The notes beneath the pieces were generated by a model. That model was given only the letters and a program-made list of their open reading frames with translations, made no database searches and was not told the origin of the DNA. Shown here one piece after another: positions 17,979 to 64,000 of a stretch of DNA of 64,000 nucleotides (the stretch's first letter is position 1; each line of letters starts with the position of its first letter). The stretch covers positions 7,564,001 through 7,628,000 of the forward strand of contig OX597827.1 in assembly GCA_951406725.2 (NCBI GenBank), given 5' to 3'. The stretch is from Octopus vulgaris (lineage: Eukaryota). The position numbers and the translations under genes are program-made.

Positions 17979-18024
17979 TTTCACACAAGCACATGCACAA
18001 TTTAGAGAATCTATTTATTTCGTA

Positions 18025-28933: not shown

Positions 28934-28962
28934 CACATATACATATATTCAAACACATACAT

Positions 28963-41564: not shown

Positions 41565-41571
41565 ACTTACA
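41565..41571 (-). other. Candidate splice donor in the 3' UTR (AT|GTAAGT)
   Basis: Minus strand reads aaaaatacat|gtaagtaaaa, a consensus intronic donor hexamer about 72 nt after the stop codon. Confidence 0.4.
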
Positions 41572-41642
41572 TGTATTTTTCTTTTCAGAAAAAATTCCTT
41601 CCAGAAATGATTTGTCTCTTGCTGAAGTTGGTAAGATTATAA

Positions 41643-41902
41643 TTAAGAATAATTATTCGGTATTGGCGGAAGTGGTTTTGATAAGAATGTATTGCCACCA
41701 GTTGATTTTGTTGATGGTTGCTTCTGAATTTGAGTTGTTTGTCTTGGGTTACTGCTAATACTACTACTATTGCTGTTACCAATTTTAAAAGACTTTAAGT
41801 CGACTGTGTTATTGTAGTTGGTCGGCTGATGAGGATTGCTTAAAAAGAAATTTCTGGAATCTGCATGATTTGAAGACCTTGTGTTGTGGTCATTTCTAAA
41901 AC
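41643..41902 (-). CDS. PCDH: Stop-containing coding exon of the same protocadherin-like tail
   Basis: Acceptor ttaatttatttatttcag|GT (exon starts 41902). The phase-1 join T|GT gives an open frame CFRNDHNTRSSNHADSRNFFLSNPHQPTNYNNTVDLKSFKIGNSNSSSISSNPRQTTQIQKQPSTKSTGGNTFLSKPLPPIPNNYS, then TAA at 41645-41643. This frame is absent from the ORF track and was found by hand translation. Confidence 0.75.
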
Positions 41903-42226
41903 CTGAAATAAATAAATTAATATGTGTGAATAGATAAATAAAATGATATAAAAAAAATAGAAGAGTAACAAAATTTTAAAAAGCAGCACGAAATATTTTT
42001 CTTGAATATTTAAAATTTTTTAAAGAAATCATATTTGAAGAATATATAAGACATAGCTGTGTGGTTAAAAAAGGTTGCTTTGCAACCATGTGGCTTTGGG
42101 TTCAGTCCCACAACCTGGTACCTTGGGTAGTAAGTGTCTTTTACTGTAGCTTTGGGCCAACCAATGCCTAGTGAATGAATTTGGTAGATGGAAACTCGTT
42201 GGAAGACCTTTGTGAATGTGTGTGTG

Positions 42227-42271
<45 letters not shown>

Positions 42272-42540
42272 ATGTGTGTGTTTGTGTGTATGCATGTGCG
42301 TGTGTGTGTGTGCATGTGTGTGTGTGTGTGTGTGTGTGTGCATGTGCGCATGTGTGTATGTGTGTGTGTGAGTATGTGAGTATGTGTGCATGTGCCTGTT
42401 TTTGTCCCCATTTCCACTGCTTGACAACCAGGGCTGTTTGTATCTCCATAATTTGACAGTCCATAAAGTTTAACAGGATAAGAACCAAACTTTAGAAATA
42501 AGTACTAAGAGCAATTTGTTCAACTAAGAAACCCTTCAAG

Positions 42541-42908
42541 GGTCAACTCTTCCAGAGGTAAAGGTGATGCCTTAGATAGAAATGATTACAGAGATATCAA
42601 ATTGTTGGATCAGGTGATGAAAGTTACAGAGAGGGTCATAGCCCAACAAATTAGGGAGAAAGTTAGTCTAGATGAGATGCAGTTTGGTTTTGTGCCAGAG
42701 AGAAGTACCACTGATGCTATTTTTCTGGTAAGGCAGCTGCAGAAGAAGTGTCTACCCAAAGACAAACCTCTGTACTTGGCTTTTGTTGACATGTAGAATG
42801 CCTTTGACAGGGTCCCTGATCCCTTAACTGGTGGTTAAATGCAGAAACTAGGGATACATGAGTGGTTGGTGAGAGCTGTACATATCATGCATGTATAGGG
42901 ATGTTGTC
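42541..42908 (+). mobile_element. RTE-clade LINE RT fragment
   Basis: GKGDALDRNDYRDIKLLDQVMKVTERVI...EMQFGFVPERSTTDAIFLVRQLQ...LYLAFVDM*NAFDRVP. Confidence 0.85.
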
Positions 42909-43004
42909 CCTACTTACCACACAGCCACTACCTATGCGTATATATATATATATATATACTAGAGAGAGAAAGAGAGAAATAGTGTGTGTGTGTATATATG
43001 TATG

Positions 43005-43056
<52 letters not shown>

Positions 43057-43064
43057 TGTATATA

Positions 43065-43111
<47 letters not shown>

Positions 43112-43611
43112 GTATGTATGTATATGTATATATTTCTAGTCTGTCTTCACAGTTCTGAAGTTGAACCACACCAGCACCTCTTCCAATTAAACAAAACATA
43201 TGTCTAACACCAGAAGAGTTGCATTGTCTACACAGACGAGTGTTATTCAACTTCAGTGTAGATAGGCCAACAAATACTACCTCAGCCATCACGTCTATAC
43301 ATCTGTCAATATTTAGAGTAAATTAAATGAACTATTATGAAAGAGCCAATTTTACCATCTAAAGACACACAAAACAGTTAAATTTACTTTTCATTTATCA
43401 GTTGAGATGTCAGATTTGAACAAATATTTCAATAAATAAATAAAAATTCAATTTGATATTTTTTCTGTGTGTTTTTAGATGAGAGGCTAAAATGACTCTT
43501 TCACCATGTAATTGTTTCAGTTTTTTCCATAGTCGTAGATTAAGTCACTTTCCAGACAAGCACAGTACCAGCATTAGAATTATAATAATTTTTATGTCTA
43601 TTTTCTGTATC

Positions 43612-44062
43612 AGGACAATTACCCCATTAGGACAATTATCCCACCAGGACAATTACCTCCTATAGGACAATTTCACCCAATGACAACTACCTCCTAGGAC
43701 AATTACCTATTTCTTTATTACCCACAAGGGGCTAAACACAGAGGGGACAAACAAGGACAGACATAGGTATTAAGTCGATTACATCGACCCCAGTGCGTAA
43801 CTGGTACTTAATTTATTGACCCCGAAAGGATGAAAAGCAAAGTCGACCTCGGCAGAATTTGAACTCACAACGTAATGCAGACGAAATACCGCTAAGCATT
43901 TCGCCCAGCGTGCTAACATTTCTGCCAGCTTGACAATTACCCCCTCTTGGTTAATTACCCTCTCTCCAATATATTAAGAAGTTTTAAATCATCATTTGTT
44001 GTCTTCTGAGCCAATTGTCATTGGTGAGGGTGATTATTGTCTATAGTGGGCAAATGTCCTAG
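43612..44062. mobile_element. MITE-like element with ggacaattaccc subterminal repeats, interrupted by a family B SINE (43707-43930, minus)
   Basis: About 6 copies of ggacaattac/cc on the left; inverted-like attgtc and atgtcct on the right. Confidence 0.55.
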
Positions 44063-45323
44063 ACTCCTATTTTCTCAGGTTTGCAAGTTTTGGATAGATG
44101 TTCTCCAACACTGGTTTGTCATTTATTGGATTTTTTAAAATCTCTTTTATGAAATTTAGCATCAGGAGATCAGCTTTCACCATTTCACTTCTGCCCATGT
44201 TTTCATCAATTTTCCTCTACCGGTTCCTTCCACATATATTTTTTGGCCATTTTATACCCTCTATCATTATTAATACAAGTTTATATTTAGTATAACTGAC
44301 ATAAATAAATTAAAACCATTTCTCTTTACAGCTTTCTACTTCTTCAAATACCCCCAAACAAATACGAAAAGCTACATGAATCAACATAATTTGGTTGATG
44401 CTGGATTAAGCTTATAATCTGGAGAAATGTTTTTACAGCTATGTCTGTAGAAAGTAGCATTCAATAATAAAAGAAATTTGAAAACTACATTTTGATAAAA
44501 ATATACTATAATCAGAATTTTTAAGAATTTTCTAGACAGAGGAGACATAAATAATTGCTTTGTTTTAGTAAAATTAATGAACTAATTGATAAGCAGCTTT
44601 CATTTTAGTATACATGTATTATATATCTGTACCTATGCAACCATTTCTCAGACAAACTACAGCTGATAGAATATTTTTCTCTCTACTAATTTGTGCCATG
44701 TTGCTCAAGCAGACTAACTTTATAACTCTAGTTGCCCATGTTTACATCATTTTTTTTTCAACTTTCATTCATCCACTGTGCTTATATCTCTCACCACCAT
44801 GTAGTATTAGTGTTTGTATGGAATGATAAATACATGAAATATTTTATACAAAGAATCATTTAATACTCTCATTATGATTTCCATCACATGCTTTTTAGGA
44901 AACCTACTCCACTACAGCAAGACTGCTATGCCTAACAGTGGATTTTACTTGGTCACTTGACCTTCAATAGATAACAGCCAAATATCCCTCTTTTTATATC
45001 ATCTCTATCATCTTTAAAATGGTTATGCAAAAATATGGACTAGTGTCATGGTTGGTATGGTTTGAGCATTGGTCAATTCAATGAGGACATGCCAGGGGCT
45101 AAACAATGGCAATACCAAGAACAATAACATCACTTGATGATTTATTGTGAATGTTGATTGATATTGATTGAAAATTGCCAAATGTGAACAACTTTAATTA
45201 ATGTGGTAAAGTAAAAATAATTTTTTAATCTTTTGAAAATATAACCATAATAAGAACAAATGCTATAAATTAACGAGAATTACTCTAAGAACACACAAGG
45301 GAAAGAACTCTTGAAATTTTAGA

Positions 45324-45524
45324 TACTCTTTTACTTGTTTCAATCATTTGACTGCGGCCATGCTGGAGCACCACCTTTAGTCGAGCAAATCGACCCCGGG
45401 ACTTATTCTTTGTAAGCCCAGTACTTATTCTATCGGTCTCTTTTGCCGCACCGCTAGGTGATGGGGACGTAAACACACCAGCATTGGTTGTCAAGCAATG
45501 CTAGGGGGACAAACACACACACAT

Positions 45525-45575
<51 letters not shown>

Positions 45576-45741
45576 TACAACAGGCTTCTTTCAGTTTCCG
45601 TCTACCAAATCCACTCACAAGGCATTAGTCGGCCCGGGGCTATAGCAGAAGACACTTGCCCAAGATGCCATGCAGTGGGACTGAACCCAGAACCATGTGG
45701 TTGGTTAGCAAGCTACATACCACACAGCCACTCCTGTGCCT
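45324..45741 (-). mobile_element. SINE family A
   Basis: Full copy. Confidence 0.9.
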
Positions 45742-46309
45742 AAAAGTTGAACTAAAATTGACTGGAGAAATGCTGATTAAGAGGAGAAAGTCTGATCACT
45801 CATTGCTATGACAACAACTCCAAATATATTTTGGTTTTATCAAACCTTCTCAGTAAAAAAACCACTGAACAAAAAGAGGATTTAGTTTTTAGATTGAAAA
45901 CGATTCACTGATTTAGTGAGTTTAAATAATGACATAAATAATTTTTCTATGTGTACATATTGCATGGAAAACATATAGTTAAGTGCAGTTTGCAATACTT
46001 AATGTGGTGAGCTACAAATTAGTTCCAATTAATTAAAGCTGTATTGGAAAGAAAAGTCATTAATATTAATGAAAATTATTGCTTAAAAGAAGGGAGAAAC
46101 TGCAGGAATTTTAATTGATCGAAAATTGGTCAGCAGGTGGTAGAAGTCTGATGAAAATGTGACCAGAGTTATTATGATAGTTACCACAAAACATATTCAT
46201 CGATCAGTGTAAACTAAATTATTTTCTCATATATAAACTGATTTTTGCAATGGTGTATAGTAATATTCTTGCATAAAAGCAGAAACTTTGTTTACTGATC
46301 CATCAATTT

Positions 46310-46623
46310 ATATATTTGCCTGTTTGTTTGCCTGTCTGCCTGCCTGTCTGCTTGCCTGTCTGTCTGTTTCTCTGTCTGTCAGTCTATCTATGTATCTGTC
46401 TATGTATGTATGTATGTATCTATCTATCTATCTACCTGTCCGTCTGTCACTGTATCTGTCCATCTGTCACTGTATCTGTCTGTCTGTCTGCTTGTCTCTC
46501 TCTCTCTCCCTCTTTCTCTCTATCTACCTATCTATCTGTTTGTCTGTCTGTCACTGTCTGTCTATCTATCCATCCATCCATCCACCCATCTATCAATCGG
46601 TCCATCTGTCTGTCTGTCTGTCA

Positions 46624-46683
<60 letters not shown>

Positions 46684-46725
46684 CTATCTATCTCTCTCTA
46701 TCTATCTCTCTATCTATCCAGCCAT
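46310..46725. repeat. (TCTG)/(TCTA)n compound microsatellite
   Basis: Direct reading. Confidence 0.95.
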
Positions 46726-47108
46726 AGCTAGATAGATAGATAAGCATTTCTCTCTCTTTCTCTGTATGTGTATGTGAGCATATATGTGTGTGTGTGTGTG
46801 TGTGTCCGTCTGTCCATGTGAATATGTGTATGCATGTATGTTTGTATGTGTGTGTATGTGAGTCTATGTGTATGTGTGTGTACATATATTCATACATACA
46901 TACACACACACATACATACGTAAATATATTATAGAAGCATTTCCATTATTAGCCATTCTTCATTCATCAATATTGTTCTCTATACTCAGATGTTGCATTG
47001 GTCATCTCATCTCCTCTTTCATATCCCCAATGGACCTCCACACTATCTCCCTCATGCACTATACCTGCTTCTTTCTGTCTCTCTCCCATTCCTGCACCTT
47101 ACACAAAC

Positions 47109-47148
<40 letters not shown>

Positions 47149-47909
47149 TGTCCTCTCCCTGTCAGCCATATCATCATTACTATCTGTTACTAGCATCTCT
47201 GCACCTTCTCCAACCCGTGCTCCATGCTCCACTGGCCATCTTCCACCCTATTCCATCCATCACCTATTTTTATCCATCACCTCTTCCATCCATCACCTCT
47301 TCCATCCATCACCCCTTCCATTTACTCATCAGCCCTGCCCATTCTTTACAGATGTCACCTACACCCCATTTCTCTTATCTCTAACCCCCTCCACCATACA
47401 CTCTTGAAAGCCCCTTCCTACATACATTCCAAGCTTCTCTGTCCCCACTCAATACCGCTCACCTGATACAGAGAGGTGCTACCTGGACATGTAACCATCA
47501 CAATTTATCGTTTTGAAGAAACTACTTAGTTCATTGTCACTTTCCCCTAAATGTGAGGAGCCATGTGGCCCCTTACTCTACCCCAATTCTTTCTCCCAAA
47601 CCCTAACACCCACCGAGTATAAAGACTTTGCTTTTGCAGACTAGCAACCTGAATGGTAGCCTCACTGATGCCAGTGGCATGAAAAAAAGGTACCAAGTAC
47701 ACACTGTAAAGTGGTTGACATTAGGAAGGGCATCCAGCAGTAGAAACCCTGCCAAAGCAGTACCGAGAGCACAATGCAGTCCTTGAACCTATTAAATTCA
47801 TTAGATAGAGTTGAATTCATCTCAGCATGGAACATGGATGTCAGATGATGAAGTTGATGATGGTGACGACAATGATGATGATGACACATACATATACATA
47901 CATGTATGT

Positions 47910-47950
47910 ATAGATAGATAGGTAGATAGATAGATAGATAGATAGATAGG

Positions 47951-47994
<44 letters not shown>

Positions 47995-48130
47995 GAAATA
48001 GATAGATAGATAGATAGATAGGTAGGTAGATAAATAGATAGATAGATAGGTATATCGATAGATCGATAGATAGATAAATAGACAGACAGATAGATAGATA
48101 GATTGATAGATCAATAGATTGATCGATTGA

Positions 48131-48166
<36 letters not shown>

Positions 48167-48195
48167 CAGATAGATAGATATATAGATAGATAGAC

Positions 48196-48247
<52 letters not shown>

Positions 48248-48263
48248 TAATAGATAGATAGAT
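47910..48263. repeat. (GATA)n microsatellite
   Basis: Direct reading. Confidence 0.95.
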
Positions 48264-48944
48264 ACACATAACATGCACATGCATATATATATAGGTGTTC
48301 ATGTGTGTATTATGAATGTATGTATGTATGTTTGTTTGTATATGTGCATGAATGTATGTATTGCATGGATAAATGCATAAAACTTAAGTACACAGAAAAG
48401 CAACACAACAAGCCATCAGCTTTTAAAGAATAAGCAAACACTACACCATCTATTGAGTACTCTTACTCATTTTCATGCATGTATGCACACACATACACAC
48501 ACACACACACACATACATATTCATATACACACATATGTATGCATGTGTAAAGTGGGTCTTCACACACATGATGCAACAAGCAAAGAAGTTTTAATTAACG
48601 AAGATTAAATAAATTAGGAATTGATATGAATATTTAATGGTACTTTAGTCATTAGCTGGATGTAATCCCAATGATGAATTTAAATGTTGCATAAGTAGGA
48701 CCCAATAAAATAAATACTGGACAAAATACCAGGGCCAAAACTATTGACTTAATTCATAGAAGGGGGTACCCCAGCATGTTTGCAGTCCAATGACTGGAAA
48801 CAGTGAAAGACATGAAGAATACTGATATTTTGTTGCTTACAATGATAGGGGGGGGGGTCCAGTTGATCCAATCAACAGAACACCCTGCTTGTGAAATTAG
48901 CATGCAAGAGGCTGAGTACTCCTAAGACATGTATGTACCCTTAA

Positions 48945-49390
48945 CCCTTTCGTTACCGTATTTATTTTGAGATGCTCTGTGTTTCTTTCAATTATTTTAA
49001 ATATAACAAAGAATTTAGTAAAATAACTTAGCTATCATTAAGCTAGTATTAGGAATATAAATTGCAACTAAGGTTTGGTGGTATATTTTGATGCAAAACT
49101 TATGAAAACAAGACATTTGTACTACAGAGCCAAAGGAGGTTTTGGCCGGGTTAGTAACGAAAGGGTTAAGCCTTTCATTAACAACCCGGCTGAAACCGAC
49201 TCTGGCTCTGAGTACAAATGTCTTGTTTTCATAAGTTTTGAATTAAAATCTTCCACCAAACCTTAGTCACAATTTATGTTCCTAACACTAGCTTAATGAT
49301 AACTAAGTTATTTTACTAAATTCTTTGTTATATTTAATAGTAATTGAAAGAAACACAGAGCATCTCAAAATAAATACAGTAACGAAAGGG
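48945..49390. mobile_element. Inverted dimer of a 221-bp piggyBac-type MITE
   Basis: TTAA(48941) - ccctttcgttac...gtaacgaaaggg(49165) - TTAA - (49170) inverted copy ...gtaacgaaaggg(49390) - TTAA. It sits at the TTAA of a degenerate minus-strand copy of the family C body seen intact near 63830-63850. Confidence 0.9.
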
Positions 49391-49623
49391 TTAATGTAGT
49401 TCTCAGGGAGGTTCAGTACGATACAGAATGTGACAAGGCTGGCTCTTTGAAATACAGGTACTACTCATTTTTGTCAGCTGAGTTGACTGGAGCAATGTGA
49501 AATAAAGTGTCTTGCTCAAGGACACAATTCATCACTGGGTAACAACCTCATGACCTGATGGTCATACAGCAAATAACAAACAATCAAAGTTCCGTTTTGC
49601 TATAAGAGAATGTAACTAAACCA

Positions 49624-49852
49624 TACTCTTTATTCTTTTACTCTTTTACTTGTTTCAGTCATTTGACTGCGGCCATGCTGGAGCACCGCCTTTAATCGAG
49701 CAAATCGACCCCGGGATTTATTCTTTTTGTAAGCCCAGTACTTATTCTATTGGTCTCTTTTGCCGAACCGCTAAGTAACGGGGACATAAACACACCAGCA
49801 TCGGTTGTCAAGCAATGCTAGGGGGACAAACACACTCACACAAACACACACA

Positions 49853-49890
<38 letters not shown>

Positions 49891-50055
49891 TACGACAGGC
49901 TTCTTTCAGTTTCCGTCTACCAAATCCACTCACAAGGCTTTGGTCGGCCCGAGGCTATAGTAGAAGACACTTGCCCTAGGTGCCACGCAGTGGGACTGAA
50001 CCCGGAACCATGTGGTTGGTTAGCAAGCTACTTACCACACAGCCACTCCTGTGCC
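49624..50055 (-). mobile_element. SINE family A
   Basis: Full copy. Confidence 0.9.
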
Positions 50056-50154
50056 ATGTGTCTCTAGTTTTTGTAATTGCTGTGTATCATCATAAAGACA
50101 TCTCAACCGTGATTATTGAGTCACTTTAGAAGTATCAGAAATCTCCCTATCTAC

Positions 50155-50755
50155 TCTTTTTTTTTTACTCTTTTTACTTGTTTCAGTCATTTGACTGTGG
50201 CCATGCTGGAGCACCGCCTTTAGTCGAGCAAATCGACCCCAGGACTTATTCTTTGTAAGCCTAGTACTTATTCTATCAGTCTCTTTTGTTGAACTATTAA
50301 GTTACGGGATCGTTAACACACCAGTATCAAGCAATATTGAGGGGACAACCATAGACACACAAACACACATACATATATATACGATGGGCTTCTTTCAGTT
50401 TCTGTCTACCAAATCCACTCACAAGGCTTTGGTTGGCCCAAGGCTATAGTAGAAGACACTTGCCCAAGGTGTCACAGAGTGGGACTGAACCCGGAACCAT
50501 GTGGTTGGTAAGCAAGCTACATATTTGTTTATTGCCTACAAGGGGCTAAACATAGAGGTGACAAACAAAGACAGACAAAGGGATTAAGTCGATTACATCG
50601 ACCCTAGTTTTGTAACTGGTACTTAATTTATCGACCCCGAAAGGATGAAAGGCAAAGTCAACCTCGGTGGAATTTGAACTCAGAACATAACAGCAGACGA
50701 AATACTGCTAAGCATTTCGCCCGGTGTGCTAACGATTCTGCCAGCTTGCCGCCTT
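50155..50755 (-). mobile_element. SINE family A (50155-50520) with a family B SINE (50522-50755) inserted in its head
   Basis: Family A ...agcaagctac is interrupted by family B and resumes as taccacac near 50758. Confidence 0.8.
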
Positions 50756-51016
50756 ACTACCACACAATGCCATCTTTATTGTTTTAGTGTCCATGTTTGC
50801 AGGTGTTGAATGGAGCTTATTGAAGCAGATATTCCACTGCCAGATGCCCTTCCTGTCACCAACACTTACCTATTCCTAAGAAAGATAACATTTTTCCATG
50901 CTCATACATGCTTACACAGAATATTGGAAATGAATGACATTGCTTATATGACAGTGACACTCATTTACAACTATCATGCAATATCAAGGCAATGAGATAC
51001 AAGCATGCACACACAC

Positions 51017-51171
51017 GAGTGGCTGTGTGGTAAGTAGCTTGCTAACCAACCACATGGTTCCGGGTTCAGTCCCACTGCGTGGCATCTTGGGCAAGTGTCT
51101 TCTGCTATAGCCCAGGGCCGACCAATGCCTTGTGAGTGGATTTGGTAGACAGAAACTGAAAGAAGCCTGTC

Positions 51172-51229
<58 letters not shown>

Positions 51230-51435
51230 TTGTGTGTCTGTGTTTGTCCCCCTAGCATTGCTTGGGGTGTTTTACATCCCTGTAACTTAGTGGTTCGGCA
51301 AAAGAGACCGATAGAATAAGTACTGGGCTTACAAAGAATAAGTCCCGGGGTTGATTTGCTCGACTAAAGGCGGTGCTCCAGCATGGCCGCAGTCAAATGA
51401 CTGAAACAAGTAAAAGAGTAAAAGAGTAAAGAGTA
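51017..51435 (+). mobile_element. SINE family A
   Basis: Near full copy about 550 bp from the donor of the 151-nt exon. Confidence 0.9.
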
Positions 51436-51987
51436 TATATATAAACACTCATACACACACACACACGCACCACACACATACACACATGTACATATATGAA
51501 TATTACTGTTAATAATTTACAATGATTTCAGTTTTGACTGCTATCTTTAGCATGCTGATGCTACAAGTAGTACCCTTCATTATTAATACATACACACACA
51601 CACACTCACACACACACACATACACCCCCCCCCACACACACACGTATATATGTTAAATGTGTATGACAAACTTCTTTCACTTTCAATCTTCTAAATAGAC
51701 ACAGAAAGCTTTAGTTGGCCCAGGTCTACAATAGAAGATACTTGGCCAAAGTGCCACACACTGGGACTGAACCTGAAACCATGTGTTTGTGAAGCAAAAT
51801 TCTCATCCGCATAGTCACATGCGTGCTTGTATATGGTGGTAAAACATTAAAGCAAATTTGACTGCCATTTCTAGCAAATCTATTTAGTATGACTGTATAG
51901 ATAAAGACCACCACATTCACTTGCATTTGTAATTTTTTAATCATGCAGAACAATTAAATACATGACAGAAATAACATTTCCACATAC

Positions 51988-52138
51988 ATGGTAGTTCTTC
52001 ATAATATCCAGTATCTGCTTCACTGCCCCCATGTCCACTGTCTGTGAAAGAAGACATCGTTGACATTTCAGAGAAATGATCAGTTGCTGTAGCTAAATGT
52101 CCTTTTTTATTGTCTTTTCCATGACTTATTTCCGTCAC
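51988..52138 (-). CDS. PCDH: Internal coding exon of a protocadherin-like cytoplasmic tail (candidate constant exon)
   Basis: Acceptor ttttttctcccggtttcag|GTG (exon starts 52138); donor CCAT|gtatgt (intron starts 51987). 151 nt, phase 0 in, phase 1 out. Encodes [58 protein letters not shown] resembles the delta-protocadherin CM1 motif (DSGHGDS[ED]). Confidence 0.8.
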
Positions 52139-52245
52139 CTGAAACCGGGAGAAAAAATTGAGAAAACCAAATAACATCAAGAAATGTGTTTTTATGCAAA
52201 ATGTACAACAATGAAGTGCAATTTTTATTTTGTTTATTCATATAT

Positions 52246-52304
<59 letters not shown>

Positions 52305-52357
52305 GTATATATATATGTATATATATATATGTATATATATGTATATATATATATATA

Positions 52358-52391
52358 TAGCGGACGTTAAAAGATGATGATGATGATGATG

Positions 52392-52432
<41 letters not shown>

Positions 52433-52483
52433 AATATATGTGCGCTAGCATGGAAAGCGGACGTTAAAAGATGATGATGATGA

Positions 52484-52524
<41 letters not shown>

Positions 52525-52582
52525 CATATATATATATAAATATATGTGCGCTAGCATGGAAAGCGGACGTTAAACAATGATA
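52358..52582 (+). repeat. Triplicated RTE-type tail interleaved with (TA)n
   Basis: gcggacgttaaa...(tga)n occurs three times, twice preceded by gctagcatggaaa. Confidence 0.8.
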
Positions 52583-52590
52583 TATATATG

Positions 52591-52627
<37 letters not shown>

Positions 52628-53100
52628 GTATATTCTTTTTTTTTGTGTATTACCATCATGAGCACTTTTACTTGGAGGTTAACATTTGTCATTGATATAA
52701 ACAAGCACTTTATAAATAAATACTCTGTTATAATGTACGAATAAATAAATATATGGGGTTTTCATTTCTATAAGGGTTTAGTTTTGCTGTGAAATTAGAG
52801 GCATAAAAGCCTTTTTGGCATCTTGAAAATTCATCTTCTTTCATATGCATGTATACACATATACATACGTGTGTGTGTGTGTGTGTGTATGTGTGTGCGA
52901 GTCAGTGTGTGTGTTTGTGTGTGTGTGTATACACGTGCATATATATACACATACACACTTATATACATATATATATATACACACACACACATTTATATAC
53001 ATATATATATTTATGGGTATGTGTATTTGTTATATTATCATTATATATTTTATGTATTTAAATGTTTGTGTGTGGATACATACATACATACATACATACA

Positions 53101-53136
<36 letters not shown>

Positions 53137-53639
53137 TATATATATGAATATATTATTATATAGATATAATTATAATTAAGAGTACTGAGAAACAGCACCT
53201 ACATGCTAGAAATAGATGTCAAAAGATTCAAAATAGCAACTTCATATTACACTCCATTAGCACAAGGCTGAAAGTAGGCAAATAAATATAATTGATTTAG
53301 TAAAATTTTGAGGTTAATTCCAGATTGTCCACTTTCTTGTTTAGTAATACAAATTACTTTACTGTCATCAGTAGAATATACTAAAAGTACATAAATATAA
53401 ATATATATACATACTCATGCAAATACATTCATATATACACAAATATAAACATATATCTACACTTATATATTAGGCAAATCCAATTATTCATCTCAACCAC
53501 GTGCATATTTGATCAAGATAATACTGCAGTAAATATCTGGACCAGAATGAAATTGTATTTGCGTTGTATATAAGTTTAGATATATGTATATATTTCTATA
53601 TATATGAATGTGTTTGTATGGGAATGTATGTATATATTA

Positions 53640-54052
53640 CTCTTTTTCTCTTTTACTCTTTTACTTGTTTCAGTCATTTGACTGTGGCCATGCTGGAGCA
53701 CCGCCTTTAATCGAGCAACTCGACCCTGGGACTTATTCTTTTGTAAGCCCAGTACTTATTCTACCGGTCTCATTTGCTGAACCGCTAAGTTACGGGGACA
53801 TAAACACACCAGCATCGGTTGTCAAGCAATGCTAGGGGGACAAACACAGACACACAAACACACACGCGCATATATATATATACATATATACGACGGGCTT
53901 CTTTCAGTTTCCGTCTACTAAATCCACTCACAAGGCTTTGGTCGGCCCGAGGGTATAGTAGATGACACTCGCCCAAGGTGCCACGCAGTGGGACTGAACC
54001 CAGAACCATGTGATTGGTAAACAAGCTACTTACCACACAGCCACTCCTACGC
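53640..54052 (-). mobile_element. SINE family A
   Basis: Full copy. Confidence 0.9.
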
Positions 54053-54279
54053 GTATATATATATATACCATATATACTCAACTGTAAAACACCCTTGCCT
54101 ATATGATGCACGCCCAACTAACAAGGTTCAGATCGGAAATTTTATCATTGACCTGGCTATAAATCACAGTGGTGTTTTTGATGTTGGAGAGCAAGGTTCA
54201 ATTAGGAATCATACCAACATAGTTGTTGTTTTTTCTCTTCATGTTAACAAATAACATGGTATCGAATTAAAACAACAGC

Positions 54280-54922
54280 CGGGGTAAGTTTTGTACTGTC
54301 AGCCATACAAGACCAAATTGCAGAGAAGTGGGCCTTGTTACTCCCTGTAGTTTTTTTTTACTGAAATTGTGTTTTTTTCCTTTAACATTGACTGTTTGTG
54401 TTCCAACCATATCGAAAAAAGGGATGTCTCATCCATATTACTGATTGCTTCCAAGGCAAACTCAGGGCTTTTTTGTAGATCTATTACATACCAATGGAAG
54501 GAATCAACTTTGCTCTCTACATCAGTGGGTAATTTCTGTGTGATATGAGTACTCTGTCTCAGATTGTGGTGCTTCATAAACCTTGTACATCAGCAGGGGA
54601 TGCTTTAAAGTCAGATATACCAGGTTCTTTAGTCACTTGGAGAGCCCACGATCAAATGATGTTTCTTGTGACAAGTCCATTTTTGAGTAGTTCAGTCACC
54701 CACTTTCTCAAAATAGTCACCACTGGGACTAATTCCTATCCTAATTTTCTTTAACATTTTAATGTCAATGGATTTAATTTTCTCCTCTTTCACACACCAA
54801 TCCCAGACCATTTTTCCTGAGACACCAAGTTGTCTTTCTGCAGCTCGATTCAAATATTACTTTGCATATTCAATAACTTTCACCTTGAAAGTGATATCAT
54901 ACGAATTCTTCTTTCTCTTCAT
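54280..54922 (-). mobile_element. Decayed pogo-superfamily transposase (BrkDBD-like N-terminus plus DDE start)
   Basis: MKRKKNSYDITFKVKVIEYAK*YLNRAAERQLGVSGKMVWDW... and ...FALEAISNMDETSLF. A diverged second piece lies at 56790-56965. Confidence 0.75.
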
Positions 54923-55307
54923 GTTAACAAATAACATGGTATTGAATTAAAGAAAGACAGGTATTGAATTAAAGAAAGACAGGTAGGGTACAAAAACAAA
55001 CAAGAATTAAACTCACTTTTAAAAAATTAATTGTTTATTTCATACTAACTGAAGTAAAGAAATATATAAAGAAATATCCAAAGATTGTCTTCTGTGTATT
55101 TTTCAGCTGCGGAATTAGCAATTTAGGTTTTTCCGGCTATTCAAAGTGTCAGAACTTCAGACATGGCTTGTATCTAGAAGATATCTGAAGATTTTTTATA
55201 GGATGCGCTTATAAGTTGAACCCCCAACTTTAGATACCAGGTATACATGGTATATATATATATATATACATATATATATGAACAATATTCCCTCGTATTA
55301 TTATTAT

Positions 55308-55339
<32 letters not shown>

Positions 55340-55379
55340 TACACACACATATACATACATACATACATATGTGTGTGTG

Positions 55380-55427
<48 letters not shown>

Positions 55428-56412
55428 GTATATATATATATATATATTCATACATATATATGTATATATATTATATATATAAATATATATATATATTGTG
55501 TATATGAATATATACACATATATATTATATTATATAGATCATATATATGTATGCATGTATGTATGTATGTATGTATGTATGTATATTAGTCAGAAGAAAG
55601 GGCAGCATCCTTGACCTTTTTTTTTTGCAGATCCTCCAATTCTAGTGGGAAGAAGAGAAGAAATTATCCTCAGACAAGATATCTGGCATGAATGCTTAAG
55701 ACAGAGTGGACTCTCCTAGAGACCCCTAAAGGCCCCTAAAGGCCTGGTCAAATCAGGCAACAGCTTAAGCTTCCTCATGAATAAAAAAAAAAAATCTACC
55801 ATTTTTATTGACATCAAACAGTTCATAAGGATTCACTCACATTTCTTTCCCAAACTGCTAATGATATTAGCTGAAGGCAACATATTAAAAATGTAAACAA
55901 ATATGTGCTTCAGCACAAACTCATTTGTATAATGGTACAAGGTTGCAGGCCAGACAATAATTACTAGTTGTCTGCAGAACAAACAGTTCTCATTCAGTTG
56001 TTCTTTGCTTGTTATGTTAGCCGTAACAGCTGGTGTTCTTAGATATGAAGAATTGTTTCTAGAAAATTATATATTCTGATCTGATATTCAGATTTGACAA
56101 AAACAATTTTGCTTGTTATGAAAGATCAAACAGAAAATTAGATTTTAATATTTGAAGGTAGAATTCCTGTTGGAATTTGTAATCAAAACCAAATCATCAA
56201 CTCCAACAGTTCTAAATCTACTGCTACTCCATAGTGTAGCTGAATGGTTGACAAGTTTATTTCATGATCACGAGATTCTGGGGTTAATTCCACAGCATGA
56301 TATCTTTGGGCATATGTCTTTTTTCAAAGACTCAAGTTGATATCCAAGCATTGTGAATGAAACTAGGTGGGAGGAAGCTGTTTAAAAGCTTATCAGAAAA
56401 ATTATATCAGTA

Positions 56413-56648
56413 AGGTGGTGAACTGGCAGAAACGTCAGCACACCGGGCGAAATGCTTACCGGTATTTCATCTGCCGCTACGTTCTGAGTTCAAATTCTGC
56501 CGAGGTCAACTTTGCCTTTCATCCTTTCGGGGTTGATTAAATAAGTACCAGTTATGCACTGGGGTCGATATAATCGACTTAATCCATTTGTCTGTCCTTG
56601 TTTGCCCCCTCTGTGTTTCGCCCCTTGTGGTCAATAAAGTAGTAAGAA
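56413..56648 (+). mobile_element. SINE family B
   Basis: Flanked by the TSD-like aattatatcag on both sides. Confidence 0.9.
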
Positions 56649-57004
56649 GAATTATATCAGGGATTTAAAAGTCCAGCCTAGCTACATCGCAGTAATTTCC
56701 CCCCAAGAATTATGCTGAATACTCGTGTCTGTAGAATACTAAACCACTTACATGCTAATTCAATAAAGAGTTATATTTTTTTTCCATTAACGTTGACTGT
56801 CTGAGTTCCAACCATATCGAAAAAACAGGACGTCTCATCCATATTACCGATTGCTTCCAAGACAAACTCGTGGCTCTTTTGTAGATCTATTACATACCAA
56901 TGGAAGTAATCAACTTTGCTCTCTACATCAGTGGGGTAATTTCTGTGTGATATGAGTACTCTGTTGACTGAGTAACTGCATAAACATCATCAAAACTTGT
57001 GGGT

Positions 57005-57207
57005 ATCTCTTTTACTTGTTTCAGTCATTTGACTGCGGCCATGCTGGAGCACCGCCTTTAGTCGAACAAATCGACCCCAAGACTTATTCTTTGTAAGCCC
57101 AGTACTTATTCTATCGGTCTCTTTTGCCGAACCGCTAAGTGACGGGGACGTAAACACACCAGCATCGGTTGTCAAGCAATGCTAGAAGGACAAACACAGA
57201 CACACAA

Positions 57208-57260
<53 letters not shown>

Positions 57261-57425
57261 TATGACAGGCTTCTTTCAGTTTCCGTCTACCAAATCCACT
57301 CACAAGGCTTTGGTCGGCCCGAGGCTATAGCAGAAGACACTTGCCCAAGATGCCACGCAGTGGGACTGAACCCGGAACCATGTGGTTGGTTAGCAAGCTA
57401 CTTACCACACAGCCACTCCTGTGCC
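57005..57425 (-). mobile_element. SINE family A
   Basis: Full copy. Confidence 0.9.
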
Positions 57426-57740
57426 TATTTATTTATTTATTTATTTATTTTTTTTCTCCACTCTTTTCTCTTACCTTAACCCACATCTCTTAGCACAAAA
57501 TGGCTTGTCCACTTTAAGTCTCATAGTCTGGTGAGCTGCATGGCAACTGCTCTAGTGCTGGTGACATGAAAAAAAAAAGCATCTAGTACACACTGTGGAT
57601 GGCATTAGAAAGGCCATCCAGCCATAGAAATCATGTGAAAACAGTCACTGGAGCACTCCTTGTCTCCTTGGACCCAACAGATCCTTTCAAATCATCCAAC
57701 CCATGCCAGCATGGAACAAAGATGTTCAGTGATGATGATA

Positions 57741-57783
<43 letters not shown>

Positions 57784-58128
57784 CAGTTGAGAATGGTAAG
57801 GTATTTGGTATCTGAATCAGCAGAATTGGTGCAAGAAGTGTGTTGAGGTCAAAAAGAGTTATCTCTGAGGGTATTGAGTTCATAGAAAACAGAGCTAGGG
57901 TAGACGTATTTTGGTGTAGAAGGAAAAATTGTTACACAACTGTTTGTTACAATAAGATTTTGGTAAGCAATTTGAGACAGGAGATAAACCTTGCAGAATA
58001 TGAAAAAGAAACTTTCAAGCAAAGTCACGCTTGCTAATGTTCAGTTGAAGGATGTGAATGTTTAAGAGAATGTACAGTCCAGACACATCCTCAGAAAAGA
58101 AGAGGAAATATGCAGTATACATATCATA

Positions 58129-58432
58129 TGTGGAGGCACAATGGCCCAGTGGTTAGGGCAGCGGACTCACGGTCGTAGGATCGCGGTTTCAATTCCCAGA
58201 CCGGGCGTTGTGTGTGTTTATTGAGCGAGAACACCTAAAAGTTCCACGAGGCTCCGGCAGGGGGTGGTGATCCCTGCTGTACTCTTTCACCACTCTTTCT
58301 CTCACTCTTTCTTCTGTTGGCCTGCTCGCTTAGCCAGCGGGGTGGCGTCATTCGAAGGCTAAAACAATGCAAATGCATTGTGACCAGCGATGTGTAACAA
58401 CATCTGATGGTCTGGTCAGTCACGTGATCACA
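58129..58432 (+). mobile_element. SINE family C, tail type 2
   Basis: Same tRNA-like head as type 1, different 3' part ending ggtcagtcacgtgatcac. Confidence 0.8.
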
Positions 58433-60544
58433 TAGCATATATATGTAATATACAGAACAAGGAAGACTTAGAGTTATGGTGTGCGTGATATGTGCCTCAG
58501 AATAAAATACGTTATGTGATTTGCAAGCAACCATACAGATTAGTGCCCTGCATTGAGGTTGAAGCAAAATTCATTGATTTAAAAGTGTAAGAATTGTCCA
58601 GCAACTTTTTTTGTCATTCTTCCTAGAATTCTCAGAAATGGTTCTTGTTATTATTTAGCCCCAGGTCAACCTCAGTGGAGCAGAACAATAGACACACATG
58701 TTCAAACCATGACTACCTCATGTTTTTCAGGCACAAATTAACTGGCGCTACATTCTTTCATTTCATATAATGTATGATTTCCTTTCTTTAATATGGTACG
58801 GTGGGATTTTTGAGGGAGATTTGGCTGTTTTTGTAGCAGATCCAAGGATGGTTTACTGATTTCCTTGTTGGTTTGATGTTTGTGAGATATTATGAATGTT
58901 TCTTAGAGAAATTGAAAAGGAAATCAAGTCTCATAATCAGCTTCACTGGACACTGATTCACTTCCTATATCAATCAAAGGAAGTTAGTAACCTTGGATGG
59001 GTTACTTGATATTCTGTGCTCACTGGAAAGGAACACTAATCATGAATTATGAAGAGGAAAATGTGAAATTTGAACCCTTTTGATAAGTCTTTTTCTCAAG
59101 AATTTTCAACAGATTCATGTTCCCTTACTATCATGGAAACTTTTCCAATAGGTTTTCTCTGAATTTCTATGGATCCAGGGCAGGTAAAAGACTAGGAAGC
59201 ACTATGTGAAAAACCTATGTTATCTTCGACAAGGTACCTTATGAATTCCTTGCAACAAATTAAACAACACGGGCAGTAGATTTACAGAGTTGATAGCACA
59301 GCAGAAAATGCTTTTGCAATATTGCTCTGGTTCTTTGGGTACTGAGTTCAAATCCATCAGAAGTTAACTTTGCTTTTAAGCTTATTACAGCATTTATTCT
59401 TTAATGTCTATTTTTCTATGCTTGCATGGGTCAGATGGAATCTATTGAGACAGATTTCCTTGGCTGGATGCTTTTCTTGTTGCCAACCCATACCCATTTC
59501 CAGGCAAGGTAATATTTCTCCATGGCTAGACATGTTTCTCATGGAAGACTGGAAAGGAACAACATCATGTGTATGAGTTATACTTGTTTTTTACCATCAT
59601 GTGCATCTATCAAATCTACTCACAAGGCTTTGGTTGGTCTGGGCCTATAGCAGAAAGCAATTGTCTAAAATGCCACATAGTGGGATTGAATCCAAGATCG
59701 CACGGTTAGAAAGCAAACTTCTTAACCACATGGATAAACTAAAGTACTGGTCAAGTTTAATGCATTAGTAGGATTGTTTGTACATCAGGTAAGATATCTT
59801 GTGATACTTGTTATAGTTCTTTGATTTCTGAGTTCTTGGGTGATGAACTTAAACAATTCATCACCCAGTTTATAACTCTCATTTGGTTCCTGGGTACTTT
59901 AGCAAAGTTCCACTTTGTTGCAAGCATTCAATTCAAGTTCAAACAAGATGAGGACAAATATCCGTCAAATGTAAATAATATGAATAATGTAAATAAAGCT
60001 TTTATAGTTTTACTTTTTGTCAGCTCTTTTACAATCAAATAAACTACAAGAATCACATGATGAAGTGTGAGCTAATATACTTTAATTAGAGAACACTGTC
60101 CCACAACCATTATTTTAATTAGTTAATTAATAATTAATTAATAATTACACTCATAGTCCAGAGAAATGATAATAAAATTTAATGATTAAATCTGATTGAG
60201 AATAAGGATGATAGCACCAAAATCTAAATTATGAAATGAAATTAAAGCACTATATTGAAATAGACCCCTCCCATACACACATGTGCATATGTGTACACAC
60301 TCACACACAGATGCACACGTGCACACATATGCGCACGAGCACACATATTCTATTTGTTTGTGTCTATGTTAATTGTTTATGCTAGCTAGCTGAAGTTGTG
60401 TTTTTGTGTCGCCTATCTCTTGCTTAGCAGGAAACTGTAACACCATTATACAGCTTGTGAATATCACAGTGAGACTAAATACACACAGGGAGTACTGTGT
60501 GAGCAAAGTAGGGAGCTTCTGTATGGACGTTTGACTTGCTGAAA

Positions 60545-61087
60545 TCAAAATCGAAGTCGATCAACATCAATGGAAATTGCGGCTGTGATACCAGTACCGG
60601 TGACAAGTAAGCGAACCATCCGATTGTGGCCGTTGCCAGCGCCGCCCCGACTGGTCTCTGTGCCGGTGGCACGTAAAAGCACCGTCCGTTCGTGTCCGTT
60701 GCCAGCCTCACCTGGTCCCCGTGCCGGTGGCACGTAAAAGCACCATCCATTCATGGCCGTTTGCCAGCCTCGCCTGGCCCCCATGCCGGTGGCATGTAAA
60801 AAGCACCATCCGTTCATGGCTGTTGCCAGCGCCGCCCCGACTGGCCTCCGTGCCGGTGGCACGTAAAAGCACCGTCCGTTCGTGTCCGTTGCCAGCCTCA
60901 CCTGGTCCCCGTGCCGGTGGCACGTAAAAGCACCATCCGTTCGTGGCCGTTTGCCAGCACCATCTGGCACCTGTGCGGGTGGCACGTAAAAAGCACCCAC
61001 TACACTCGCGGAGTGGTTGGCGTTGAACCGTCCAACCCATGCTAGCATGGAAAACGGACGCTAAATGATGATGATGATGATGATGAT
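60545..61087 (+). mobile_element. RTE-type 3' end with ~60-65-bp tandem array
   Basis: Same unit family as 18025-18537 with a ~190-bp higher-order period (gccgccccgactgg at ~60641 and ~60831); (tga)n tail. A related minus-strand copy is at 61943-62225. Confidence 0.75.
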
Positions 61088-61382
61088 GTGCCCTAACTCA
61101 ACAGTTTGATAAATTAGATATCATCAAAATAAGTATTAGACAGAAATATGAACTAGAATCAATATTGTTGACTGGAATCTGTGAAGGTGGTGCTTAGCCA
61201 CAGTCTAATGACTAAATCCAGTGAAAGAGAGTAATATAGAATCACTTGAAAACAGAGAAAACTGTGGTGCTTCAGAACGTGATGTAAGAGAGAGTATTAA
61301 AGAGCAGACAAATAAATGTCATCTATGCTTATACAAATATTTGCAAATACAATGTGAGTGTTTTTTTTATGTGTATATGTAT

Positions 61383-61757
61383 ATTCTTTTACTCTTTCAC
61401 TTGTTTCAGTCATTTGACTGTGGCCATGCTGGAGCACTGCCTTTAATCGAGCAACTCGACCCCGGGACTTATTCTTTTGTAAGCCCAGTACTTATTCTAT
61501 CGGTCTCTTTTGCCGAACCACAAAGTGACGGGGACAAAAACACACCAGCATCGGTTATCAAGCAATGCTAGGGGGACAAATACAGACACACATACGACGG
61601 GCTTCTTTCAAGTTTCCGTCTACCAAATCCACTGACAAGGCTTTGGTCAGCCCAAGGCTATAGTAGATGACACTTGCCCAAGATCCCACGTAGTGGGACT
61701 GAACCCGGAACCATGTGGTTGGTAAAGAAGCTACTTACCACACAGCCACTCCTGCGC
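61383..61757 (-). mobile_element. SINE family A
   Basis: Copy lacking most of the internal microsatellite. Confidence 0.85.
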
Positions 61758-63619
61758 ACAGATATAAATATATTTGTGCATGTAAATAACTATACTTAAA
61801 TATATATGTAGAGATATCTAAATCCTAAATGTGCATTGCATACATACACAAATGTATTTACACAAATGTATATTGATAAGGTGGGACATTTGAAGAACTA
61901 TTTCTTTCAGTGTTGAATGTAATGTCTAGTTTTCATTAGTTATCATCATCATGATCATCATCATCGTTTAACGTCCGTTCTCCATGCTAGCATGGGTTCG
62001 ACGGTTCGACCGGGGATCTGGGAAGCCAGAAGGCTGCACCAGGCTCCGGTCTTATCTGGCAAAGTTTCTACCGCTGGATGCCCTTCCTAACACCAACCAC
62101 TCCGTGAGTGTAGTGGGTGCTTTTTACGTGCCACCTGCACTGGTGCCAGGTGAGGCTGGCATCGGCCATGGTCGGATTGGTGCATTTTACATGCCACCTG
62201 CACGGAGGCCAGTCGAGGCGGCACTGACTCACCATATTCTCACAAGATCCAATTTAACTTTTATCTTTCCAGGGTCCATATATTTTAACTTAACCAACTG
62301 CTTCCTACTTCAAACTTTTTGGGCCTTATGCCAGCATGGGCTGCAAGGCCAATGACCAGCATAGATTAACTGACCATTCAACTAGTTGTGAATCAAAAAG
62401 GTGGATTGTCTAATGACACTAGTTAGAAACAGTCTTTTTTACAAACACAGTAAAAGCACACGTAACATAACAAGACATCCTTCTTTATACATGGGAGGGG
62501 TAAAGCAAACAAGTAAACAAAAAAAAAAAGGAAAAGAAATACAAAAACAAAAGCATATTTTTTTCTTCATTTTCGTCTTATTTTTTTTTATTTGTAGAAT
62601 TCTTGAAAGTACAAGATTAAAAACACATTTTAATTGTGTTTGTTGTTCTGTAAAGAACATCTTAACCTTGATTCTTTTCTCCTGTGATTCCCTTTTGACA
62701 CAAATGTCTTCCATTCATTTGGAGATCGTGAAAACAATTTAAGGTGTACTCGGGCATACATACATTGACAGCTATAACAACACCCCCTCCCTTTCCCAAC
62801 CAGTCTTCAACACTCGTTTCAGGTCCTTCTCCTTCTCCTCCTTCTGTTACTGCCTTCACTTTTGCACTTCTCAATAGTCCTGACACATCCCTTCAAAAGA
62901 AATTTTCACAGGATTACGCTGACAAAGCCGAAATGAAAGGTTCGTGGATTGGAGCTCTCCTCACAATCCACTGATCAGGAAATGTTACTGTAATGTCATT
63001 TCCTCACACATCCATATAATTGCTTCATATTTTTATTATTATTTTTAATTCAGTGATAACATCAAACACGACAATTTGTGTGTTTAGTCTCCTTTTCATT
63101 TGTTTGATTTTTTTCTTTTATTTGTTTCAGACTGTGGCCATGCTGGGGCAACACCTTGAAGAATTTTTAGTGAAATGAATTCACCCCAGTACCATTTTTT
63201 TTTAAAGCTTGGAACTTATTCTATTGGTTTCTTTTGCTGTACTGCTAGGTTACAGAGAAGTAAGCACACCAACACCAGTTATCAAGCAGTCGTGGGGCAT
63301 AAACACAGATACAGAAACACATACACACGTAGATATACCTGTATACACACATACACACACATATATATGATGGGCTTCTTTCAGTTTCCAAATCAATTCA
63401 CAAGTCTTTGGTCAGCCAGAGGCTAAGGGAGAAGACACTGGTCTAAGGTGTCACACAGTGGGACTGAACCTGGAGCCATGTGGTTGGGAAGCAAGCTTCT
63501 TGCCACACAGCCATGCCTGCATCCATTTTCTTGAAATTTTTATGACAAGAAAATAATTTGAAACCTTTTTTTAGTGTGTGAATCTTTATATGCAAAGATA
63601 TCAGGGAGTAGGAGTGTGT

Positions 63620-63960
63620 CATAGGATCACGGTTTCGATTCCCAGACTGGGCGTTGTGGGTGTTTATTGAGCGAAAACACCTAAAGCTCCACGAGGCTCC
63701 AGCAGGGGATGGTGGTGATCCCTGCTGTACTCTTTCACCACAACTTTCTCTCACTCTTACTTCCTGTTTCTGTTGTACCTGTATTTCAAAGGGCCGGCCT
63801 TGTCACTCTCTGTGTCACACTGAATATCCCTGAGAACTACGTTAAGGGTGCACGTGTCTGTGGAGTGCTCAGCTACTTACACGTTAATTTCACGAGCAGG
63901 CTGTTCCATTAATCGGATCAACCGGAACCCTCGTCGTCGTAACCGACGGAGTGCTTCCAC
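63620..63960 (+). mobile_element. SINE family C, tail type 3
   Basis: Shares ggtttcgattcccagac.gggcgttg...ctttctctcactct with the 58129 copy, then diverges (...gagaactacgttaagggtgcacgtg...cgtaaccgacggagtgc). Confidence 0.8.
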
Positions 63961-64000
63961 CACCTGAGTATAATTGTGTTTGTCTGTTTTACATGTTTTG

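Follow-up and report, generated by a model that had tools for sequence, protein, structure and literature searches.

Do two small minus-strand exons in a 64,000-nucleotide stretch of Octopus vulgaris DNA (the window) form a constant region shared by many upstream ectodomain exons, as the original prediction proposed, or do they belong to a single gene? Had octopus possessed such a region, the published contrast with vertebrates would have been overturned. Both belong to a single complete octopus protocadherin gene of three coding exons and 929 amino acids (gene A; Table 1), as its coding exons 2 and 3, and very probably serve that gene alone. The gene is already annotated and the whole-gene-duplication layout already published; the exon-level evidence confirms the published contrast with vertebrates, and the gene itself is of little consequence as it stands.

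Table 1. Gene A, its tail motifs and the ectodomain exon E. Seven-digit positions are on contig C14, all others within the window.
Feature	Position	Strand	Details
Coding exon 2	51988..52138	-	151 nt, entered in phase 0 and left in phase 1; 50 residues and one further base
Coding exon 3	41643..41902	-	260 nt including stop TAA; acceptor ...TTTCAG; final coding exon in the main isoform
Intron 2	41903..51987	-	10,085 nt; GT-AG; phase 1
Intron 1, 3' part	52139..64000	-	full intron 69,827 nt, remainder beyond the window
Ectodomain exon (exon 1, gene A)	G000:C14:7,688,344-7,685,966	-	outside the window, 69.8 kb upstream of exon 2
CM1-like core DSGHGGSE	52019..52042	-	from exon 2 translation and matches to zebrafish and oyster stretches
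YYEELP	51989..52006	-	end of exon 2; tyrosine motif found family-wide
KPLPPIP	41658..41678	-	near the C-terminus; proline motif found family-wide
Annotated alternative 3' splicing	41571..41779	-	predicted in database model P0122
Ectodomain exon E	7,943,276-7,940,811	-	good donor

The two minus-strand exons are genuine, in frame and spliced, as judged from the window translation, assembled contigs and a database protein: the predicted canonical splice sites, matching phases, intron of about 10 kb and tail of about 136 residues agree with the coordinates, the contigs and protein P0121. Exon 2 lies between the acceptor ...TTTCAG and the donor GTATGT, and its joining to exon 3 gives a 136-residue tail that includes DSGHGGSE. 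Contigs were aligned to exon 2 and its flanks (51760-52240), and in 4/4 runs one contig of 99% identity or more covers exon 2 only, i.e., in spliced form, and extends 150-760 nt past both ends of the exon. The 51988-41902 joint, which had been proposed as a check, was read from loose ends: those on the donor side (two runs, among those listed) match exon 3 at 29/30 letters, and an upstream loose end in run X5 (one of the four runs listed) matches the 3' end of exon 1 at 30/30. None of the 24 runs available is on record as RNA, which counts neither for nor against; the four aligned are RNA by prediction, and X5 is labelled with another organism code; contigs also drop rare variants, and rare splice forms are invisible in them.

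A large first exon with a phase-0 donor had been expected beyond position 64000, and the scan upstream found one for gene A on the same strand: 793 codons for a signal peptide, six cadherin repeats, a transmembrane segment and 78 cytoplasmic residues, followed by a phase-0 GT donor. Translated together, the three exons reproduce P0121 letter for letter over its 929 residues, so that the tail (its last 136 residues, one residue off P0001) is that of an octopus protocadherin, as predicted. Annotations of three Octopus species show this 929-residue pairing of ectodomain and tail, and Argonauta P0002 joins an orthologous ectodomain (84%) to an orthologous tail. Gene A is listed as “putative protocadherin beta-18” (XP_029644517.1, CAI9732444.1 and XP_014774862.1, identical or near-identical 929-residue proteins); “beta-18” is an automatic label. 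Pfam recognizes PF08266 (Cadherin_2-type EC1) at residues 20-103 and five PF00028 stretches, five inter-repeat linkers back the six EC repeats, and a hydrophobic peak at about 689-711 marks a single transmembrane segment. With a non-classical cytoplasmic tail added to these features and the signal peptide, gene A has the architecture of the expanded coleoid protocadherins. By analogy with its family, its product would be a Ca2+-dependent neuronal cell-recognition molecule that may adhere homophilically; neural enrichment has been reported for octopus protocadherins at the family level (PMC6339937).

What kind of tail is this? DSGHGGSE had been taken for the CM1 motif of delta-protocadherins, and the resemblance of the core holds: seven of its eight residues match zebrafish and oyster protocadherin stretches in a supplementary alignment (PMC6339937), both within cytoplasmic tails and with Ser-rich residues just before. 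The likeness is limited to these eight residues, here labelled a CM1-like core. One alternative is that DSGHGGSE resembles vertebrate CM1 through chance or convergence, in a tail without homology to those of delta-protocadherins. Several results favor it: Pfam gives nothing for exon 2 or exon 3 at E<=1; a profile of 11 exon-2 copies finds 20 proteins among 1.84 billion, and among the 10 looked up the six with names are all octopod and no vertebrate protein was identified (the other four are unnamed); and neither CM2 (CWMP or GHSDxCW) nor RRVTF occurs in any of the 170 proteins compared, gene A included, in keeping with a report that vertebrate-like motifs are absent from octopus protocadherins (PMC6339937). 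We nevertheless consider it rather unlikely, given the eight-residue core behind Ser-rich residues in both zebrafish and oyster tails, the invariance of D33 and G35 in 10 octopus paralogues, the placement in a small exon after a large first exon, as for CM1 in Pcdh10, and an expected count by composition of 4e-7, for a pattern chosen after seeing the sequences. This alternative bears on the motif alone and does not conflict with a tail private to gene A.

The DSGHG core, YEEL and KPLP are absent from the motif table of PMC6339937, whose published scan overlooked the CM1-like core in octopus tails. Among the 170 proteins compared, YEE[IL] is present in 71 and KPLP in 43. pYEEI is a ligand of Src-type SH2 domains, and RPLPPLP a class I ligand of Src-type SH3 domains; YYEELP resembles the former and KPLPPIP the latter, suggesting putative functions of the same kind. 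The disordered tail may signal via three short linear motifs, namely the degenerate CM1-like core, YEEL as a phosphotyrosine site and KPLPPIP as a proline site. Judging from the motifs, it is possible, if tentative, that they together dock an SH2-SH3 protein, e.g., a Src-family kinase or adaptor. They give a testable idea of octopus protocadherin signalling, of possible specialist interest.

Is the tail within reach of other ectodomains? As predicted for the roughly 12 kb upstream, no cadherin exon lies in 52139-64000, nor in the rest of the window (tblastn with the ectodomain over 474 kb, giving three places, all outside the window). In the 564 kb around it (C14:7,384,001-7,948,000, containing no N), the minus-strand order of ectodomain exons and numbered tail exons is E, C, 2C, 3C, B, 2B, 3B, A, 2A, 3A (window), D. 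The 97 kb from the tail of gene A to that of the next gene hold one ectodomain exon only, and upstream no tandem ectodomain exons without intervening tail exons were seen: there is one, then the next gene's exons 2 and 3. The two next genes upstream, B and C, own exons 2 and 3, and complete private tails appear in database models P0059 (the Argonauta orthologue of B) and P0187 (C). Because these neighbors carry their own tail exons, it is most likely that those of gene A do not serve as a shared constant region; and because they repeat the unit of ectodomain, exon 2 and exon 3, the cluster grew by whole-gene tandem duplication. Gene A is a full gene of several exons in a one-chromosome cluster of genes that point the same way: at least 25 exon 2 paralogues are on the same contig and strand, and 142 of 145 PF08266 matches, among the matches listed, are on C14. 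These maps rest on about 0.8 Mb of examined stretches plus the matches listed.

Protein comparisons agree. A query with the tail (residues 794-929) found it in two of 129 candidate proteins, both with a gene A-type ectodomain (the Argonauta orthologue included), and among 128 proteins compared exon 2 identity exceeds 56% only in those with the gene A ectodomain. One tail set on several different ectodomains was not seen among the 129 candidates or in the single contig per run, where rare forms are invisible. The original prediction had held that use of only one upstream exon would speak against sharing, and one is what contigs and gene models show; its squid precedent is contradicted by Albertin 2022 (PMC9068888), which states that in cephalopods (squid, octopus) several first exons are not spliced onto a common set of last exons and that their protocadherins arose by full gene duplication.

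A second alternative is leaky sharing, in which the tail is mainly gene A's, and read-through from B, C or E sometimes skips their own tails and reaches the 52138 acceptor, giving in-frame chimeras. Genes A, B, C, D and E are on the same strand, head-to-tail, and each of the five donors examined around the window is in phase 0, so that cross-gene splicing would stay in frame; in addition, rare forms would escape the contigs, and no tail exon for E was found in the 77 kb below it. This last negative is weak, since the exon-2 HMMs miss divergent tails: they overlooked 2C (recovered by tblastn with P0187) and the seven-codon last exon of array c (recovered by comparing units). The best database protein for E reaches at most 64% identity (search within 444-1416 aa). 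Leaky sharing seems improbable all the same: database models give B and C full tails of their own, the splice would need to run past the end of a gene as well as exon A, the 129 candidates include no chimera, and each run gives a single 99%+ contig spanning well beyond exon 2. Still slimmer is the prospect that read-through joins ectodomain exons of upstream genes, chiefly the apparently tail-less E, to downstream tails including gene A's, as a leaky, incipient variable/constant system among full genes. That exons 2 and 3 are the constant region for an upstream array of variable ectodomain exons, as in vertebrate Pcdh-alpha/gamma, is extremely improbable, and the genome layout refutes it: the large single ectodomain exon, small 3' exons and long first intron do resemble the vertebrate layout, but non-clustered mouse Pcdh10 has the same one, there is no array, the tail exon is itself multi-copy, and PMC9068888 rejects such an arrangement in squid as well as octopus.

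In the preferred reading of a private tail, the ectodomain exon 69.8 kb upstream joins exon 2 in phase 0, and exon 2 joins exon 3 in phase 1. Gene A is a member of the expanded octopod protocadherins, with six EC repeats, several exons, a same-direction cluster and no structural difference. According to PMC9068888, PMC6339937 and PMC9795677, these are whole-gene tandem duplicates on one chromosome, expanded independently of the vertebrate clusters; published trees put octopus protocadherins in their own clade. Vertebrate non-clustered delta-2 protocadherins (e.g., Pcdh10) are alike in their six EC repeats, the single large first exon that encodes ectodomain, transmembrane segment and proximal tail, the small 3' exons private to each gene, a core resembling CM1 and C-terminal splice isoforms; unlike them, the octopus gene lacks CM2, limits its CM1 likeness to eight residues, has YEEL and KPLPPIP, and lies within a large cluster. 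The clustered Pcdh-alpha and Pcdh-gamma of vertebrates share the clustering on one strand and one large six-EC ectodomain exon per isoform, but their variable exons splice to shared constant exons, whereas the octopus has tail exons per gene. Promoters in these vertebrate clusters are chosen stochastically by way of CTCF/cohesin looping.

Tandem arrays elsewhere repeat this pattern: in five sampled, a tail exon of its own accompanies 24 of 25 ectodomain exons (the exception, in array b, has none in the 5 kb examined), and at 80.0-80.2 Mb an exon-2 copy lies 2-6 kb downstream of 22/22 EC1 matches listed. Array members vary roughly over EC2-EC3, whereas the part that runs from EC5 through the tail is near-identical. 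Different ectodomains with identical C-termini (33/7140 pairs) were taken as a sign of sharing, a reading rejected when the tail proved to be at least 23 near-identical genomic copies; the tails are near-constant because the copies are near-identical, not because exons are shared. Such arrays come close to the variable/constant protein design of vertebrates but share no exons, which may interest specialists.

At the 3' end, the 4 kb below the stop contain no AATAAA polyadenylation signal, only five ATTAAA. Simple and dispersed repeats occur throughout intron 2. The annotated P0122 isoform removes a GT-AG intron within exon 3 (41779-41622), continues in a 51-nt exon (41621-41571) that has a donor too, and in this model loses KPLPPIP.

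The two minus-strand exons in the window (2A and 3A) are the real, spliced and annotated tail of one protocadherin gene. Joined over a 10,085-nt intron, they yield 136 residues including DSGHGGSE; the splice sites and in-frame translation confirm the two-exon, roughly 136-aa tail with an intron of about 10 kb that was originally predicted. The remaining window sequence is AT-rich, non-coding and full of repeats: it has 95 stop-to-stop frames with at least 100 aa, not one of them cadherin-like, and tblastn with the ectodomain as query found no match within the window. The window itself spans 7,564,001-7,628,000 of contig C14. The large cadherin first exon with a phase-0 donor anticipated beyond position 64000 is present as exon A, in the single cadherin frame in the next 120 kb (7,688,374-7,685,882 of the same contig, C14), with an ATG at 7,688,344; its codon 793 is followed by a phase-0 donor at 7,685,966, and intron 1 takes up 69,827 nt before exon 2A. 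Exons A, 2A and 3A together encode a 929-aa protein, the same as P0121 in the database, with Pfam matches to Cadherin_2 at 20-103 and to five Cadherin stretches, and no Pfam family match on the tail. The P0001 cluster contains 929-aa models from Octopus sinensis, O. vulgaris and O. bimaculoides, and Argonauta P0002 joins an orthologous ectodomain (84%) to an orthologous tail (68%); the gene and its layout are already known.

Sequencing runs from four studies, one run each, were aligned to window positions 51760-52240 as contigs only, presumed to be of RNA, a form of data in which rare splice forms are lost. Each run gave one contig at 99%+ identity over 51986-52142, extending about 150-760 letters on each side in sequence unlike that of the introns. 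The donor-side loose ends (runs X5 and X11) are exon 3 in 29 of 30 letters, and the acceptor-side end in X5, the sole run with upstream letters displayed, is the 3' end of exon A (30/30). Tail residue 60, Ser in the window and P0121 and Thr in P0001, P0123, P0125 and both loose contig ends, is a simple allele or species difference.

Tail exons, neighboring features and sampled arrays (window positions, or C14 where indicated)
Feature	Location	Strand	Description
Exon 2A	52138-51988	minus	151 nt; pyrimidine-rich AG acceptor, GTATGT donor
Exon 3A	41902-41643	minus	260 nt; AG acceptor, terminates in TAA
Alternative 3' splicing of tail	41779-41571	minus	annotated model P0122, from annotation alone
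116-aa frame	28598-28948	minus	reads as non-LTR reverse transcriptase fragment
Ectodomain exon E (L086)	C14:7,943,276-7,940,811	minus	intact, phase-0 donor
Array	C14, 7.08-7.11 Mb		own tail exon 4/4
Array	C14, 80.01-80.05 Mb		own tail exon 6/6
Array	C14, 80.47-80.51 Mb		own tail exon 5/5
Array	C14, 79.17-79.22 Mb		own tail exon 4/5; one with just 5 kb examined below; one copy frameshifted
Array (L073-L077)	C14, 81.36-81.41 Mb	plus	own tail exon 5/5, a 7-codon last exon

The original prediction also proposed that this tail is a constant region shared by a protocadherin cluster; instead, it is most likely used by one gene only. The exon-2 peptide has at least 25 matches on C14 (among the matches listed, all on the minus strand at 1.5-7.6 Mb), and exon 2 is therefore a per-gene exon family. 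Ectodomain exons (A-E) and tail exons run 5' to 3' over 564 kb with no N in the order E, C, 2C, 3C, B, 2B, 3B, A, 2A, 3A, D; below D there is a further copy of exon 2, at 7.309 Mb, the intervening 70 kb being outside the sequence examined. The Argonauta orthologue of B (P0059, 91%) and the model of C (P0187, 99.9%) each terminate in their own tail, so that four of the five local ectodomain exons, all except E, have a tail of their own. A search with residues 794-929 among proteins of 510-1626 aa matched two of 129 candidates, P0001 and P0002; among these candidates, the tail occurs on the gene A ectodomain and its Argonauta orthologue alone.

The wider cluster layout is whole-gene duplication. 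Five tandem arrays were sampled at 50 kb each (Table), two exons truncated by stretch ends being left uncounted, in a census of about 0.8 Mb of the 85-Mb contig whose tail profiles overlooked two kinds of divergent tail until other methods revealed them. At 80.0-80.2 Mb, an exon-2 copy lies 2-6 kb downstream of all 22 EC1 matches listed. The squid precedent put forward for a shared arrangement is contradicted by PMC9068888, the sole paper that a targeted literature search returned, which describes duplication of full genes in cephalopods and denies that several first exons are joined to common final ones; in other literature listings, no title reported shared exons in a cephalopod. The accessible text of PMC9795677 describes protocadherins as tandemly duplicated on one chromosome, and that of PMC13218726 adds nothing further on exons.

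A rival to private tails is rare in-frame splicing of ectodomain exons onto other genes' tails. Every donor checked is phase 0, and cross-gene splices would therefore stay in frame; the overlooked tail kinds, the census coverage and the display of the upstream partner by X5 alone also count on its side. So does exon E, which has a donor; we found no in-frame ATG ahead of its signal-like stretch, the 77 kb below it gave no tail exon (with profiles that had missed divergent tails elsewhere), and no database protein exceeded 64% (search range 444-1416 aa). Of the local ectodomain exons, E is the strongest candidate to be a pseudogene, to end in a short divergent tail or to share truly with gene C. 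Set against the neighbors' own tails, cross-gene splicing is nonetheless very improbable.

The array design is one of variable recognition repeats over a near-constant base. Amino-acid identity within each of four arrays (7.08-7.11, 80.01-80.05, 80.47-80.51 and 81.36-81.41 Mb; L023-L027, L058-L067, L073-L077) is lowest over roughly EC2-EC3 (alignment columns 130-350), where three arrays have 78-87% and the fourth has 90-96%; EC1 is at 82-99%, and columns 460-680, about EC5-EC6, at 99-100%. At least 23 exon-2 copies at 80.0-80.2 Mb are 96-100% alike. This pattern likely arose by gene conversion; EC2-3 is the specificity region of vertebrate protocadherins. One array member, L071 (C14:79,206,534-79,209,089, minus), is broken over four frames and is either a pseudogene or a product of assembly consensus errors; further short open frames occur in the arrays among the matches listed.

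From family knowledge, the protein would be a Ca2+-dependent neuronal recognition molecule, its tail a putative low-complexity segment working via short motifs. DSGHGGSE resembles a zebrafish stretch that we take to be CM1. Seven of its eight residues are as in zebrafish and oyster protocadherin tail stretches in the available part of the PMC6339937 supplement; that paper, as far as accessible, gives CM1-3 as not found in O. vulgaris. The full pattern occurs in 6 of 170 collected proteins, all gene A and orthologues, and a looser core in 23, with CM2 and RRVTF in none of the 170. A tail profile search gave 20 matches; of the 10 with source checked, six were octopod, four had no name and none was identified as vertebrate, and two matches inspected resemble chance repeats. 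Because of the likeness, weighed with these counts and the profile search, DSGHGGSE is probably homologous to CM1. Among 120 relatives, Y[EDQ][ET][ILV][PAS] occurs in 69 (shuffled mean 0.6) and KPLP within the last 45 residues in 33 (shuffled 0.08); these resemble the pYEEI SH2 and RPLPPLP class I SH3 ligands, respectively (consensus from the part of PMC11842026 available), suggesting that the tail may offer two-point docking to a Src-type SH3-SH2 protein. The genes at 81.36-81.41 Mb, in which the 7-codon last exon replaces the exon-2/exon-3 tail in all five units, therefore lack all three motifs.

In mouse Pcdh10, one large exon carries the ectodomain, the TM and the proximal part of the tail, and CM1 and CM2 are on small private exons, according to the accessible part of PMC9040349. 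Octopus gene A is like it in having C-terminal isoforms, known here from annotation alone: P0122 loses the proline motif KPLPPIP via intron 41779-41622, and P0124 terminates 7 residues past exon 1.

The 116-aa window frame (Table) reads like part of a reverse transcriptase from a non-LTR retroelement. Dispersed repeats in high copy number, which look like the short interspersed type, lie at 51760-51805, 9146-9448, 17818-18496, 60545-61097 and many more window positions; the piece at 51762-51803 is matched by dozens of contigs per run, and two database models, P0022 and P0035, have a related repeat incorporated in their tails.
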